Shown here in pieces: positions 2 to 6,281 of a stretch of 6,281 nucleotides of DNA. The DNA lies in the IMG/VR virus record IMGVR_UViG_2541047777_000002; one strand, written 5' to 3'. The notes beneath the pieces were generated by a model. The model did not search any database. It was not told the DNA's origin and worked only from the letters and a program-made list of their open reading frames with translations. Source of the stretch: a virus (lineage: Duplodnaviria; Heunggongvirae; Uroviricota; Caudoviricetes). The position numbers and the translations under genes are program-made. Numbering within the stretch: position 1 is the stretch's first letter; each line of letters starts with the position of its first letter.

Positions 2-1303
2 GCCGCAATTGAAGCGACTGCGCGTAACGACTACGCCAGCAACATGATCTGCATCATGCACAGCGACGGTTATAAGGTATCGCCGCTGGCCACCGATTAT
101 GCTGCGAATGATATCGGTAAAGATCTGCGTAAAGAAGCGCGGGATATTGTGTGGGAACAGACACTGGATCTGCACCTCAATACAGAAACTCCACAAGAAT
201 CAGAGCGTGAAGAACTGCTAAAAAAACGCGCGCTGACGCTTGAAGAACAGGCAAAACTTGTCCGCTGGGATATTGAAAACGAACTGAAACTACCGGTTGA
301 AGAAGGCACACTGAAATTCTATTTCGATGGTGCTCGAGACAAAGTTCGCCGCTATGAAACAATGCTTTTAGATGAGGTAACAGCTCGTCGTTACGACCGG
401 GAAGAAGCAGCCATCAATTTTACCTACGCATACCGTCAGGCGGGACAGTGGCAATATTTTGTAGTGACCGCGATGACTCGCGAGCAGGCTGATGATGTCT
501 TTAAAACTAAATTCCCTGGAATAATCGATCACAAGGTAAAAGCTACTCCTACTGTTGAAGTCGGGGCTCGCGGTTTCTATGCGCTTAAATCAGCAACTCT
601 CCGGCAGTACTTTATCGACTGCGGTATCAACCCTGAGACTATGACCGGCGAGGCGACTCAGGAGCGTCTCAAATTCGCTCGAGATAATCTCATGACAGCC
701 GAACGCCGTGACCTGTTGAATAACGTTCTGCACATTGGTGGTTTTATGACGCCAAAAGGGAAGCCTAAAGTGCCGGAAGCGTTGTTTAAAAACATTTGCG
801 ACTCTCTTGGCCTTAAAACAGGTAAACGTCGCGGCAGAGACGGCGATAAGCGTCCAACCTTGCGTTTTGTTGAGCCTGAATCAGCGGCATTTATGCTGGA
901 TATTCTTGTTCAGCGTCAGAAAGATGGCCTAACCCTAAAAACGCGTAAAGCCGAGAAGACAGCCATCGAAATGGATCGCGATTTGGATCTCAATATATAT
1001 ATGGATGATAAAACGCGATCCACAAACGAGCAGGTTCAAAACGCCCCTCATTCAGTAATTTCTGAGGCTTTGGCCGTATTGCCGGTGGCTGTTCCTGAGT
1101 CCTGGGCGATGAGTGCGCTTTCCGGTGAGGAGCTGGCCACTATGTCATCATGGTCATCAACCAGCATAGCTATGACGTTTGCATCTCTGTACCTCACAGA
1201 GTTCATGGATCACTTGTCCAGCAATGAACTGCGGCGGTTACGAGAATACATTACCGGGAATAGCTCATGCAGCTACGAAGAGCAGGGCGCTTTCTATGGG
1301 TAA
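2..1303 (+). CDS. hypothetical protein, 5'-truncated at window edge (at least 433 aa of C-terminal sequence)
   Basis: Seen: the reading frame is open from base 2 with no stop until TAA 1301-1303; the track ORF 44..1303 is only the first internal ATG. Balanced, charged composition with ordinary coding appearance. No domain recognised by eye. Confidence 0.6.
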   Translation, partial: AAIEATARNDYASNMICIMHSDGYKVSPLATDYAANDIGKDLRKEARDIVWEQTLDLHLNTETPQESEREELLKKRALTLEEQAKLVRWDIENELKLPVEEGTLKFYFDGARDKVRRYETMLLDEVTARRYDREEAAINFTYAYRQAGQWQYFVVTAMTREQADDVFKTKFPGIIDHKVKATPTVEVGARGFYALKSATLRQYFIDCGINPETMTGEATQERLKFARDNLMTAERRDLLNNVLHIGGFMTPKGKPKVPEALFKNICDSLGLKTGKRRGRDGDKRPTLRFVEPESAAFMLDILVQRQKDGLTLKTRKAEKTAIEMDRDLDLNIYMDDKTRSTNEQVQNAPHSVISEALAVLPVAVPESWAMSALSGEELATMSSWSSTSIAMTFASLYLTEFMDHLSSNELRRLREYITGNSSCSYEEQGAFYG

Positions 1304-2632: not shown

Positions 2633-2662
2633 TTGACGTGTGCGTCGTTTTGACGGTAAAGT
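2633..2662 (+). promoter_or_regulatory. candidate sigma70 promoter for the anti-immunity operon (TTGACG - 18 nt - TAAAGT)
   Basis: Seen: TTGACG at 2633-2638 and TAAAGT at 2657-2662. The -10 match is weak (4/6) and there is a second TTGACG at 2650-2655. Inference only. Confidence 0.25.
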
Positions 2663-2691
2663 TACTCCGCTGCGGCAAATTCCGCAGCCGG

Positions 2692-2715
2692 GCGTGAGAA
2701 CCCGGATAAACGAAG
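2692..2715 (+). promoter_or_regulatory. upstream copy of antisense-RNA target sites (a1 GTGAGAA 2694-2700; b1 AAACGAAG 2708-2715)
   Basis: Seen: both elements are exact reverse complements of two single-stranded segments of the downstream RNA (TTCTCAC 2828-2834; CTTCGTTT 2813-2820). The 10-mer GCGTGAGAAC (2692-2701) recurs at 2862-2871. Knowledge: phage P1 immI has a1/b1 upstream and a2/b2 downstream of c4. Confidence 0.5.
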
Positions 2716-2720
2716 CGCAC

Positions 2721-2743
2721 AACACGCGCCAGCGTGTTTTTTT
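2721..2743 (+). terminator. intrinsic-terminator-like hairpin (AACACGC-GCCA-GCGTGTT) followed by a T run
   Basis: Seen: 7-bp stem with 4-nt loop; seven consecutive T at 2737-2743, of which the first two pair in the stem. Lies between the a1/b1 elements and the structured RNA. The stem is short, so efficiency is uncertain. Confidence 0.5.
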
Positions 2744-2772
2744 GTGTGTATATACCTGCGCATATCCGATTT

Positions 2773-2855
2773 ATGGTGGCTCAGGCGGGGCTGACTTCGG
2801 TCAGGCCGGTTTCTTCGTTTGCCGGTATTCTCACCCCCGCTTGGGCTACCACCAT
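2773..2855 (+). ncRNA. c4: c4-type antisense (repressor) RNA of an immI-like anti-immunity locus; ends approximate
   Basis: Seen: 7-bp closing helix (ATGGTGG 2773-2779 with CCACCAT 2849-2855); inner helix GCGGGG 2785-2790 with CCCCGC 2835-2840; hairpin CTGAC-TTCG-GTCAG (2791-2804); hairpin CCGG(T)/(G)CCGG (2806-2825) whose loop carries CTTCGTTT; unpaired TATTCTCAC (2826-2834). Both single-stranded segments are complementary to short elements upstream and downstream. GC-rich, with no convincing ORF. Knowledge: this matches P1/P7 c4 and N15 CA RNA. Confidence 0.65.
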
Positions 2856-2861
2856 TCAAGA

Positions 2862-2909: not shown

Positions 2910-3074
2910 ATGTTCAAATTCAAATTTGCGGCAGTCGTTCGCACAGACAAAAAGTCACACATCCATCATCTTTCCACCATCGCGTCATCTGAACGGGAAG
3001 CTCGTCGCCAGTTCGCCAGCCGGTTTGTCCTGGTATTGTCTGCCCGTATTCCGGTGCGCGAGGTGGCTGCATGA
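2910..3074 (+). CDS. icd: Icd-like small protein (putative cell-division inhibitor), 54 aa; not in the supplied ORF track
   Basis: Seen: ATG 2910 with GGAG 8 nt upstream; translation MFKFKFAAVVRTDKKSHIHHLSTIASSEREARRQFASRFVLVLSARIPVREVAA; stop TGA 3072-3074 overlaps ATG 3071 of the next ORF. Knowledge (from memory, not searched): resembles Icd-like proteins that follow c4 in P1-type immI loci. Confidence 0.6.
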   Translation: MFKFKFAAVVRTDKKSHIHHLSTIASSEREARRQFASRFVLVLSARIPVREVAA

Positions 3075-3304
3075 ATCAGGTAAAAATGAACACTGTTGGC
3101 CTGCTGGAATCGTTGGATGAACGTCTGGCTCAGGTCTATGCGCTCGTATCATCAGCCCATCGGACAGTCTCCAGCTGTGAGGCGTCGATTTATCTCTCAG
3201 AAGCAGGGAAACTCCTTCAAATTGCGTGTGAGTTAACACACGAAGCACAGGGATATTCAGCATCGCTCTCGTCGCAATTGCTGCACGGTAAGGAGGCTGA
3301 ATGA
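3071..3304 (+). CDS. hypothetical protein, 77 aa, within the antirepressor operon
   Basis: Seen: ATG 3071 with GAGGTGG (3060-3066) 4 nt upstream; ATGA overlap with the previous stop and with the next start at 3301. No recognised domain. Confidence 0.6.
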   Translation: MNQVKMNTVGLLESLDERLAQVYALVSSAHRTVSSCEASIYLSEAGKLLQIACELTHEAQGYSASLSSQLLHGKEAE

Positions 3305-4074
3305 GCGCGTTAGCAGTCTTTTCCTTTCAGGAAGAGCATCAGGTACGTGTAGTGATGATTAACGGCGATCCGTGGTTTGTGGCGAATGATATTTGCAATG
3401 CTTTAAGCATCCAGAATGTCACACAAGCTATCGCTCGATTAGATGAAGATGAGCGATCTATGTTTAACATAGGCCGTCAAGGTCAAGCCAATATCATCAG
3501 TGAATCAGGTCTTTACACGCTCATTCTCCGCTGCCGTGACGCTGTAAAACAGGGCACGACCGCGTGGCGTTTTCGTAAATGGGTAACGAACGAGGTCTTG
3601 CCCTCTATTCGCAAGAATGGAGAGTACGTTTACGTCGAGCCTGAGCCAATGCGAGCAGCAGAGCCGTTGAACTGGAGGCAGAAGGAGTATCTGCGAGGGC
3701 TGATTAACGATATTGCACAAAGTTTTCAATACCGAAATGCCTGGATTAGTGGTGTATGGTTGGCTTTGCGTCGGGCGTGTCGTAATCCATCCCCGAACCC
3801 CATAACGGTTGATGATTTGCCAGCAATTACGGCAGAACTGCGCCGGATTTTGACGGCTGCTGAGTCGGCATTGGGGAACATGCGCACGTATGAACGAGAG
3901 TTGTTGCGTGATGTTGTTCGTGGGGGTAGGCGGAGTATGTCGTGTGGTGATTTGCCCATCACCGATATTAACTCTGATCTGGAAAAGGCGTTACCCGCGC
4001 ATTTTGAACTGGCAGTTCAAAAACTTGAGCAGTTATCCGCGCAGCTAAAGCCAGCAGAAATCACCAATAAATAG
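3301..4074 (+). CDS. ant: phage antirepressor with N-terminal Bro-N-type domain, 257 aa
   Basis: Seen: ATG 3301 with strong SD TAAGGAGG (3289-3296). N-terminus FSFQEEHQVRVVMINGDPWFVANDICNALSI...GLYTLILRCR...FRKWVTNEVLPSIRKNGEY matches the Bro-N / antirepressor pattern (FxF, DGxxWFva-Dva, GlY-li, VLPxiRk-G) as recalled. Gene order (antisense RNA, icd-like, ant) supports the call. Confidence 0.8.
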   Translation: MSALAVFSFQEEHQVRVVMINGDPWFVANDICNALSIQNVTQAIARLDEDERSMFNIGRQGQANIISESGLYTLILRCRDAVKQGTTAWRFRKWVTNEVLPSIRKNGEYVYVEPEPMRAAEPLNWRQKEYLRGLINDIAQSFQYRNAWISGVWLALRRACRNPSPNPITVDDLPAITAELRRILTAAESALGNMRTYERELLRDVVRGGRRSMSCGDLPITDINSDLEKALPAHFELAVQKLEQLSAQLKPAEITNK

Positions 4075-4245: not shown

Positions 4246-6135
4246 TTAACCGAAATATGTCAGCCATGCTAACTGCATTGCTGACATGGGGCTGTTTGCA
4301 CTGCCGGACCACGCATAATTCTGGCCATTATAATGAAACTCAACAACGTATGAGCCATCACCAATATTTCTCACCGGCTTAAATACCGGCTTAGATACAG
4401 GCGAAGAAGGTGCAGGCGGTTGCTGTTCTTCTACGCTCTCTTCCTCTTCCTCTATCTCAATTTCGTCGTCATCCAGATCGTCATCCTCTGACAATTCATC
4501 CGCCAGTTCAGGTATTGCTTCCAGTTCTTCTTCGTCAGGCATAACGATTTCTGGAGTATCTATTTTCAGTTGCCATTGTCCGTTTTCGCCAACAAATTGC
4601 CCCAGAGCATCAGCAGCAAATTCCAGGTATCGACTAATCATTGTTGGGCTAAATTTGAACGCTCTTAGAGTGCTGTTCGTGATTTTTATAGAGGGGTCCT
4701 GCTCTACCAGCTGCTTAACTGTGTTATGCAGACGAACCCCGGCATCTCCTCTGGCGAATCCAGGCATTTCGTCATCAAGCTGCTGCAATGCTTCCAGCCT
4801 GGTATTTTCGTTTCCAGTATTTGGCCTCCATGTCTTTGAGAAGTTGGCCAGCTTGAATTGCTTATAGTGTAATTGAGTGTTTTCATCGTCATGGCCTAAA
4901 ATTTCCATAAAGAAAACATCTTCATCTACGTTTTTCCAACGAGGATCTACGCGGAAAAACATTTCATACGCAATACGGGCATAAATAGCACGACTATCTT
5001 TATAAACACGGCGGTCATCTTTGAAAAATGATTTAACCCACGGGTTAAAAGCCTTTGCTAATATGGCATTAATACGTCCGTTTTCAGAGCGTGTGTCGTT
5101 ATCTCCATAACCTTTAACGACATCATCAAAATCAGATGCTGCTGGGCATGAGCGAAGTACATTTATTAAATAAACAAATGTTTTTGCTTCGCATAATGTA
5201 TATATTTTTCTGGTTATATCATCAGAAGTTCTTTTTTTAGCTTGGCCTAAAAAATCAACGGTATACTTACCAGAAACAGTAAATGTACCTTGATACATAA
5301 TCTCAATCATTCGTCTTCCTGACAATGCAGCAAGTGCAAATGCCAAAGGAGCCATACCTGAACGAGTGTTTAGATTATTTAATGTAGCAGGGCTATTTAT
5401 AATATCGTAAATAGCTTGCATATATTTAGGGTAATCAATGACCACCACGTTACGTTTCTTATTGTGCAGAACGTCCGCCCATCGTTGCTGGATAGATGCA
5501 CGTTCGGCAGGGCTTAGTTGAAGATGATAGAGAATCTCATGGTTAACTTTTAGCTGATTCAACTCCTCAAGTAATGCAGATCCTTGCTGTAGTAATTTAT
5601 ATAAATAATCGCGCTTATCTTTCCAGTTATCGCTAGTTAAATCAGAAATGGCGAATTGCCACTCTTTATATTTATTTGATAATTTCAATAACTTATTATG
5701 ACTTTTGTTATCGCCAATTCTGATATTAGATAAATCTTCTGATAGAGGGAGAATTAATTTTAATTTTGCCTGTAAAGCTGACATTCTCTGGCGAATATCG
5801 GCAGCAGGTAGAGAAAGCCATGACAATAGCTCCTCATTATATAAAGGATACTTTTCAGATAGGCGATGTATATTTTTTTCAAAGCTATGATGAAGTTTAT
5901 CATCAAACCGTTTTCTGGCCCTGCTCATATAGGCATTGAATGTGTTGGCTGTAATTCTTTTTTCTAATCCTTTCCCCCTAAACTTTCGCTTGTCATTAAA
6001 TAATGCATTTTTAAATTTTAATGCAACAGCCTTTATTTTTTTTGTTTTCTCCCCTTGAGGACGGTCAGAGTTATCTATTGACTCAACATCGCTAACAAGT
6101 GAGTTTATTAATTCACCGATTTTTACTTTGCTCAT
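4246..6135 (-). CDS. telN: protelomerase (telomere resolvase), TelN-like, 629 aa
   Basis: Seen: intact 629-aa ORF with SD AGGAGAGG upstream of ATG (minus strand). Knowledge (from memory): long stretches (N-terminus MSKVKIGELIN..., RSGMAPLAFALA, RSENGRINAILAKAFNPWVKSFF, RRVYKDSRAIYARIAYEMFF, NTQLHYKQFKLANF) match phage N15 TelN, including a tyrosine-recombinase-like catalytic region, an acidic linker and a C-terminal domain. Confidence 0.9.
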   Translation of the reverse strand: MSKVKIGELINSLVSDVESIDNSDRPQGEKTKKIKAVALKFKNALFNDKRKFRGKGLEKRITANTFNAYMSRARKRFDDKLHHSFEKNIHRLSEKYPLYNEELLSWLSLPAADIRQRMSALQAKLKLILPLSEDLSNIRIGDNKSHNKLLKLSNKYKEWQFAISDLTSDNWKDKRDYLYKLLQQGSALLEELNQLKVNHEILYHLQLSPAERASIQQRWADVLHNKKRNVVVIDYPKYMQAIYDIINSPATLNNLNTRSGMAPLAFALAALSGRRMIEIMYQGTFTVSGKYTVDFLGQAKKRTSDDITRKIYTLCEAKTFVYLINVLRSCPAASDFDDVVKGYGDNDTRSENGRINAILAKAFNPWVKSFFKDDRRVYKDSRAIYARIAYEMFFRVDPRWKNVDEDVFFMEILGHDDENTQLHYKQFKLANFSKTWRPNTGNENTRLEALQQLDDEMPGFARGDAGVRLHNTVKQLVEQDPSIKITNSTLRAFKFSPTMISRYLEFAADALGQFVGENGQWQLKIDTPEIVMPDEEELEAIPELADELSEDDDLDDDEIEIEEEEESVEEQQPPAPSSPVSKPVFKPVRNIGDGSYVVEFHYNGQNYAWSGSANSPMSAMQLAWLTYFG

Positions 6136-6147
6136 CTTTCCTCTCCT

Positions 6148-6167
6148 GATTATCCGCTCGGATTATC
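6148..6167. repeat. direct repeat GATTATC-N6-GATTATC 13-32 bp upstream of the telN start codon
   Basis: Seen: two identical 7-mers with a 13-bp period, between the telN SD and the AACACAAT repeats. On the telN-sense strand they read GATAATC, so they could be -10-like boxes or a regulator site. Inference. Confidence 0.3.
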
Positions 6168-6169
6168 GT

Positions 6170-6267
6170 AACACAATTTGAGAATAAGATAACTAATAAC
6201 GCGTTAACTTAGGCACAAACTAACAGAACACAATAACGGATAATAAATAAAAACACAATATCAGAAC
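6170..6267. repeat. three copies of AACACAAT (6170-6177, 6227-6234, 6252-6259), CAGAAC at 6224-6229 and 6262-6267, and a 10-bp palindrome TAACGCGTTA (6197-6206)
   Basis: Seen: the repeated motifs as listed. Knowledge (from memory, unverified): the N15 telRL arms contain CAGCACACAAT-like repeats bound by TelN; here 6224-6234 reads CAGAACACAAT. Inference: TelN-binding repeats flanking a telomere site that lies past the window end. Confidence 0.35.
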
Positions 6268-6281
6268 GTTAAAATTTGTTC

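Follow-up and report, generated by a model that had tools for sequence, protein, structure and literature searches.

The locus in front of telN raises the question of whether the short stretch at positions 6136-6281 belongs to a telomere and, if so, which part of it is present. This stretch closes the 6,281-bp viral DNA that was analyzed as a whole (the window), and an earlier note, made from the letters alone, had seen in it repeats resembling protelomerase target arms and had expected a hairpin telomere or a telRL palindrome within about 100 bp of the last base. From the comparisons described below, it is very likely that 6136-6281 belongs to an N15-type telomere region (tos), of whose left arm it covers the inner three quarters, and that it carries degenerate copies of the distal TelN box. 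The window would then hold the subtelomeric part of telL.

The adjoining gene, telN (4246-6135, minus strand), codes for a protein of 629 aa that was assigned as a protelomerase (telomere resolvase) by its Pfam domains and by homology. The domains TelK_N, TelK_muzzle, ResT-TelK_cat and TelK_stirrup were found with E values of 1e-25 to 1e-50, above the cut-offs, and the protein is 77% identical to N15 TelN, 73% to phiKO2 TelK and 41% to PY54 Tel. Against the TelK crystal structure 2V6E, 536 residues could be aligned (E 2e-295), and the catalytic Tyr424 is kept in the motif LHYKQF, which aligns with the TelK active-site region of this structure. On these similarities, the ORF can be regarded as a full TelN/TelK protelomerase, a tyrosine-recombinase-like telomere resolvase. 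The gene is complete and the first one inward from the left telomere, with transcription running away from the telomere. Its Shine-Dalgarno sequence AGGAGAGG (6140-6147, minus strand) was read directly 4 nt before the ATG, and the CTCC(T/C) core of this element is conserved in the homologue alignment.

The gene content in the remainder of the window is N15-like, with the end of RepA, a C4/isrK antisense-RNA immunity module and a Bro-N protein. Positions 2-1303 (plus strand) hold the C-terminal end of a 1331-aa RepA primase/replicase that is open to the window edge. Between immA and telN, a 77-aa ORF (3071-3304, plus strand) is followed by a 257-aa Bro-N domain protein (3301-4074, plus strand). 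Rfam models scored above the gathering score within 2656-2856 (plus strand), namely c4-a1b1 at 2656-2708, isrK at 2669-2742 and C4 antisense RNA at 2769-2856; this segment corresponds to the P1/N15-type secondary immunity (immA) antisense switch and is approximately 81% identical to the gene 31-33/cA region of N15. Within 6136-6281, no RNA family match was obtained with Rfam.

A megablast search of phages and complete E. coli genomes returned no record identical to the whole window, the best one reaching approximately 97%. Positions 5900-6281 are 98.4% identical to Escherichia phage PhiR46_1 (PV340565.1) and 99.2% to YDC107_1 (CP025712.1), and 17 plasmid records of E. coli match positions 5000-6281 at 98.4-99.8% identity. 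The sequence was located at 25 places in E. coli, every one of them on a plasmid and none on a chromosome. PhiR46_1 was deposited as a linear molecule with telL and telR annotated, and the end of the window corresponds to base 57 there. The element can be placed by sequence with the linear plasmid-prophages of E. coli in the Ravinvirus group, clade PhiR46_1/YDC107_1. All boxes described below are present in PhiR46_1, YDC107_1 and the approximately 17 E. coli "plasmids" as they are here, while single-nucleotide differences between the clade and the window occur at 6211 (G/T), 6218 (C/T), 6226 (G/T) and 6262 (A/G).

The telomere itself was sought by extending the sequence past 6281, and the palindrome outside the window was taken from an identical contig and from relatives of 97-99.8% identity. 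The contig (ENA ERZ13448270 NODE_860, L015) was retrieved by a look-up of the exact TelN protein, matches the window with 0 mismatches over 5,036/5,036 positions and extends 56 bp past 6281 before it stops inside the CCATTATACGCGCGTATAATGG palindrome. These added 56 bp read CTTGACTTTGTTCTGAAAATCAGCACATAATTACCCATTATACGC up to the symmetry centre and GCGTATAATGG after it, so that the contig terminates in ATCAGCACATAATTACCCATTATACGC on the near side of the centre and GCGTATAATGG on the far side. In this contig, the palindrome arm begins 19 bp beyond 6281, and the symmetry centre, i.e. the hairpin tip, lies 45 bp beyond. The 22-bp telO core CCATTATACGCGCGTATAATGG occupies the positions 35-56 bp past 6281 and is found in all relatives. 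A distal box, ATCAGCACATAAT, is located at -19 in the contig and its relatives, outside the window, and agrees with the pattern CAGCACAYAAT; the L3 box of the resolution site at -19 reads AGCACATAAT. A tip at 56 bp beyond the window was considered and rejected, because PhiR46_1 and the contig both overrun the symmetry centre by 11 nt, and the centre is therefore 45 bp and not 56 bp beyond 6281.

The intact form of the site is available in p19KM1803_4 (L004), a relative of 98-99% identity, in which the uncut site is a perfect palindrome of 54 bp (ATCAGCACATAATTTCCCATTATACGC followed by GCGTATAATGGGAAATTATGTGCTGAT, meeting at the centre) with a central CGCGCG, followed by sopA. Counted from the centre up to and including the ATG, the region measures 194 nt for the present telN, 195 nt for N15 and 193 nt for phiKO2, which places the ATG 190-192 bp from the symmetry centre, at 191 bp in the present element. 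From these data, we infer a covalently closed hairpin end, telL, 45 bp past 6281. Since a palindrome of about the expected 50 bp exists well within 100 bp of the window end, and since the repeats are present at the verified tel sites of N15 and phiKO2, the telomere prediction of the earlier note holds.

The earlier note had also proposed to look for a contig end or a hairpin artefact in the assemblies, and both were found. Other contigs with an identical TelN stop 180, 202, 227 or 229 bp in front of the telN start codon and thereby bracket the tip at 191 bp, ending either 11 nt short of it or 11-38 nt past it, a pattern that hairpins usually leave in short-read assemblies. In long-read records such as YDC107_1 and pG749_3, telN is duplicated head to head across this centre. 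These records comprise L001 (CP025712.1), L005 (NZ_CP014491.1), NZ_LT906558.1, NZ_CP126957.1 and NZ_CP019258.1; each arm of their palindromes measures 200 bp or more, the plasmids among them are 61-75 kb in size, and a circular topology is given for pG749_3 at least. The head-to-head duplications are artefacts of long-read read-through of a hairpin telomere, not larger plasmids. A hairpin thus explains the assembly breaks, fold-backs and inverted duplications at this place, and RefSeq contains several "circular plasmids" of 61-75 kb that are hairpin artefacts.

It is improbable that the window was derived from the genome in its virion or circular form, or that it belongs to an integrated and degraded remnant, in which case an uncut telRL or nothing at all would follow instead of a hairpin end. 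Sequences with an identical or near-identical TelN that run through telRL into sopA/sopB (L004, L010-L012) speak for such an origin, but the window-identical contig ends 11 nt after the symmetry centre, and the location of 25/25 E. coli places on plasmids and none on chromosomes argues against it as well. Moreover, such a form would leave the palindrome in place 19-45 bp past the window end, so that the predicted proximity would stand in either case.

Regarding the stretch itself, its GC content is 32% as compared with 45% in the window, and the AT-richness reported earlier is real. The 8-mer AACACAAT starts at 6170, 6227 and 6252, all three copies lying inside 6170-6259 and hence within 90 bp as had been noticed, and no further copy exists in the 6,281-bp window when both strands are considered. 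It would be expected 0.36 times per whole window, and three copies were reached in 3/200 shuffles, while some 8-mer reached three copies in 26/2000 (1.3%) local dinucleotide shuffles of the 146 bp. By composition alone, the cluster is therefore unusual, yet not overwhelming, and we regard the conservation in other phages, rather than composition statistics, as the decisive evidence for these boxes in the alignments. The reading of 6224-6234 as CAGAACACAAT was confirmed by a direct check of the coordinates, and the arm sequence CAGCACACAAT, which the earlier note had given for N15, does occur in N15 telRL.

Two further repeats named there fared less well. CAGAAC is present twice by direct match, starting at 6224 and 6262; the second copy differs in one base from CGGAAC, the form found at 6262 in PhiR46_1, YDC107_1, pG749_3 and p19KM1803_4, with CAGAAC at this place being common to some contigs with an identical TelN, and the pair was rejected as a true repeat. 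GATTATC likewise exists as two copies 13 bp apart (6148-6154 and 6161-6167) beside the telN Shine-Dalgarno sequence, which had been taken as a possible sign of autoregulation. A 7-mer direct repeat within 20 bp was found in 316/2000 shuffles (16%), and the alignment confines the pair to the PhiR46_1/YDC107_1 clade, as N15, MStein-2023a and phiKO2 lack it. Being at chance level and clade-specific, it was rejected as a regulatory repeat and probably has no function as a repeat.

To describe the boxes, each lineage was scanned around the centre for AGAACACAAT with no more than two mismatches, and the boxes were named by their distance from the tip. Three of them lie in the window on the plus strand and point toward the tip: the outermost left-arm copy, box -154 (GTAACACAAT, 6168-6177), box -97 (AGAACACAAT, 6225-6234), which together with the preceding C forms CAGAACACAAT, and box -72 (AAAACACAAT, 6250-6259). 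The last 20 bp of the window (CAGAACG...TTTGTTC, 6262-6281) contain the second CAGAAC and the start of GTTC-type boxes of the opposite orientation, which run on beyond the window, with a weak one at -49 and a clear one at -36.

The arrangement is shared to a large extent. Toward-tip boxes were located at -154, -97, -72 and -19 in this clade, at -154, -97, -73 and -19 in both N15 and MStein-2023a, at -154, -135, -97 and -19 in phiKO2, and at -154, -135, -97, -73 and -19 in KpLi5. The -72/73 box of phiKO2 (GTAACATAAT) is visible in the alignment with 3 mismatches, above the scan cut-off of 2. Thus, the five lineages have boxes at -154, -97 and -72/73 and L3 at -19, while the left-arm DNA outside them is only approximately 50% identical. 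Boxes that point away from the tip were scored at -36 in this clade, N15 and MStein-2023a, the latter two having a further one at -49. Box -154 is identical to N15 at 10/10 positions and to phiKO2 at 8/10, and box -97 is identical at 9/10 positions to both N15 and phiKO2, whereas the adjacent spacers reach 40-53%. When all columns between -160 and -28 were compared with N15, phiKO2, KpLi5 and MStein-2023a, 24-26/30 box columns were identical as against 49-56/103 non-box columns (Fisher p = 0.0003-0.0013, with the box columns chosen after seeing the reference sequence). As judged from these alignments, the boxes of the window are homologous in both sequence and position to the N15 flanking boxes, and the -154 box is probably L1 of the N15 tos.

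The right arm could be followed in p19KM1803_4, in which seven copies of the motif lie in inverse orientation next to sopA. Across the intact site of this relative, 10/12 motif copies point to the centre, and 12 matches occur in the 520 bp around the centre as compared with 5 elsewhere in the locus (3,762 bp). The flanks thus carry degenerate L3/R3 boxes that are inverted between the arms. Over the whole window, degenerate AGAACACAAT (no more than two mismatches) was not enriched, with 7 copies found and 7.4 expected; the box signal is one of local clustering and conservation, not of whole-window enrichment. As a separate observation, the -49/-36 boxes are directed away from the tip on the left arm and the +29/+42 boxes toward it on the right arm, so that TGTTCT lies on one and the same absolute strand in both arms. 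telL and telR were found to differ in this way in p19KM1803_4 (L004 2775-2800 and 2855-2875) and N15 (L003 1875-1897), and also in MStein-2023a.

For N15, the overall design is the same as here. The gene order is telN, tel site and sopA in both, the ATG lies 192 bp from the centre as compared with 191 bp here, the 22-bp telO is identical, and flanking boxes at -154, -97 and -72/73 point toward the centre. The L3 box follows the pattern ATCAGCACA(T/C)AAT, with T here where N15 has C. Away-pointing boxes are shared at -36, and the one at -49 in N15 is weak here. The N15 telRL spans 56 bp and each of its arms has two mismatched positions, whereas the palindrome of p19KM1803_4 is perfect over 54 bp. 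Between the boxes, the spacers share no more than 45-60% identity, and the 5' leader of telN differs, the GATTATC duplication being specific to the present clade. In phiKO2, a telRL of 50 bp is annotated that shares telO and the L3 box with the present site, and flanking ATAACACAA(T/A) boxes lie at -154, -135 and -97, of which the -135 box is additional with respect to this clade. phiKO2 further differs by a longer repeat unit, ATCATAACACAAT, by a weaker -72 box and by its right-arm distal box R3, which reads AACAGCACACAAC instead of ATCAGCACATAAT.

The Yersinia phage PY54 shares the principle, as its tel gene adjoins a palindrome that has a TACGCGCGTA core and is accompanied by additional repeats, but its Tel is only 41% identical, the palindrome arms differ and the target sequence is a different one. 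A 15-bp inverted repeat flanks the PY54 pal site, where its necessity is uncertain, and in the PY54 relative P840 the flanking inverted repeat is dispensable. No AGAACACAAT-type box with two or fewer mismatches was detected in the 801-bp PY54 locus that was scanned, and the box family is thus confined to the TelN/TelK group.

Elements with an identical TelN provide natural variants of the distal boxes. One of them (L014) has CAGAACATAAT as its real L3 box, one transition away from the -97 box AGAACACAAT, and L010-L012 have CGAAACATAAT as a real L3 or R3 box. Among the elements with a 100% identical TelN (L010-L014), L3 reads ATCAGCACATAAT, ATTAGCACATAAT or ATCAGAACATAAT and R3 reads AACGAAACATAAT. 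The spacer tetranucleotide located 12-15 nt from the tip also varies between these clade members, with TTAC in some and TTTC, TTGC or TTCC in others. Since CAGAACATAAT and CGAAACATAAT are in use together with the same enzyme, flanking boxes of the AACA type fall within its accepted range at a working telomere. Distal boxes of the AGAACA and GAAACA types are tolerated in real telomeres of such elements, and the natural variation of distal box and spacer indicates the positions at which TelN is tolerant.

The mechanism of resolution is established for N15 TelN and phiKO2 TelK and would, by homology, apply here as follows. The resolution site would be a palindrome of approximately 54 bp, in which distal boxes ATCAGCACATAAT lie on either side of the 22-bp telO core CCATTATACGCGCGTATAATGG, and the three boxes in the window would be degenerate copies of the distal TelN recognition box, (A/G/T)AACACAAT. 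A TelN dimer is predicted to bind the palindrome and to cut both strands 3 bp on either side of the centre through Tyr424. Each strand would then be rejoined to its complement, giving the covalently closed hairpin ends telL and telR, and after replication the telLL and telRR junctions would be resolved in the same manner. The boxes themselves would most probably be low-affinity accessory sites that keep TelN concentrated on the subtelomere, where the enzyme may serve both resolution and the protection of the end against SbcCD.

Previous work offers a framework for the flanking boxes. TelN requires the 56-bp telRL, which consists of telO and the L3/R3 motifs, while its natural target comprises approximately 310 bp, in which the degenerate L3/R3 copies L1/L2 and R1/R2 flank telRL (PMC12624138, EMBO J 2025, summarising Deneke et al. 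2000, 2002 for the requirement). A tos of approximately 310 bp centred on the tip extends approximately 155 bp to each side, which is the site of the outermost box in the window. Furthermore, the N15 "tos" primer tosROC-2 of the pJAZZ paper (PMC2847241) ends on GGATATCGTAACAC, the homologue of 6160-6174 in the window. The authors of the former study found it "conceivable" that C-terminal domain 1 of TelN reads the flanking repeats and recruits several TelN molecules, reported that CTD1, the domain expected to read these boxes, is dispensable for end protection, and raised the existence and role of a higher-order complex between TelN and the subtelomere as a question (PMC12624138). The 56-bp telRL alone is described in the literature as sufficient for resolution in vitro and in vivo, and our literature search found no experiment showing TelN binding to the flanking boxes. 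We consider it likely that the three boxes are weak putative TelN sites which hold extra TelN near the end.

A further feature of the stretch is a predicted extended -10 element, TGTTACGAT (6165-6173, minus strand), which is located 29 nt before the telN start codon. The string TGTTA(C/T)GAT was found 28-30 nt upstream of this ATG in 5/5 lineages scanned, and ATCnTAACACAA is invariant in 7/7 aligned sequences. The call stems from a looser scan across homologues and comes with a weak -35; a strict consensus promoter scan gave no minus-strand match between the tip and telN, and its hits were not above those in shuffles. In phiKO2, the same -10-like string also appears in the repeat unit at its -97 box. 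From its position and conservation, the element is the probable telN promoter; a literature search for "telN promoter" found no paper. Apart from this, a promoter-like TTGACT-18-CATAAT with 10/12 matches was noted in p19KM1803_4 (L004 2784-2813, plus strand), which corresponds to 2-31 bp beyond the window end. It points into the palindrome and, only in the uncut circular form, toward sopA, and the number of promoter-like matches in this region is not above the shuffle expectation.

In the five lineages, the -10-like element overlaps the -154 box, and in the window the distal copy of GATTATC overlaps the predicted -10 region. As the outermost box covers the telN -10, TelN could damp its own transcription; autoregulation through this overlap is a tentative suggestion, for which the -154 box is a better candidate than GATTATC. 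The weak -35, the negative strict scan and the presence of the -10-like string in the phiKO2 repeat unit speak against it.

The same overlap bears on the view that the boxes are purely promoter or regulatory DNA of telN (-10, spacer and UP-like elements, or sites for IHF, Fis or a repressor) whose likeness to L3 is incidental. It would account for the coincidence of the best-conserved box, -154, with the predicted extended -10, for the reach of the invariant ATCnTAACACAA beyond the box core, for an AT-richness that promoter-upstream DNA often has and for the dispensability of the flanking repeats in resolution. However, the motif recurs 6-7 times in inverse orientation on the other arm by sopA, far from any telN promoter, it matches real L3/R3 boxes of elements with an identical TelN, and it is missing from PY54, whose Tel has a different target sequence. 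We regard this explanation as quite unlikely. That the repeats are functionless chance matches of low complexity in AT-rich intergenic DNA, as some 8-mer in triplicate in 1.3% of the local shuffles and the window-wide 7 versus 7.4 expected AGAACACAAT matches (no more than two mismatches) might suggest, is effectively refuted by their conserved position and sequence in five lineages with spacers diverged to approximately 50% identity, and is also at odds with their orientation toward the palindrome centre on both arms.

The interpretation as the subtelomeric arm of an N15-type left telomere places the physical left end of the linear phage-plasmid 45 bp beyond the window, which is of value for annotation. 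The feature is already known in kind, as the N15 tos and the L1-L3/R1-R3 repeats were described before, and since members of the clade are also deposited and annotated, the finding has to be considered as known. A modest comparative gain remains in the fixed distances of the boxes, the overlap of the outermost box with a conserved -10-like element, the box variants that occur with an identical TelN, and the conserved difference in orientation from arm to arm. These data offer testable substrates for the question of what role the flanking repeats have, and AAGTGAAT was noted as an altered form of AACACAAT for single-box mutants. The accessory boxes may also be more than leftovers, as their fixed distances (-154, -97 and -72, with oppositely oriented boxes at -49/-36) would fit a defined higher-order complex of TelN and the subtelomere, formed by looping or wrapping, that shields the end from SbcCD and covers the -10 of telN, although we consider this idea rather doubtful. 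If it were true, the synthesis of TelN would be tied to the number of unoccupied telomeres.
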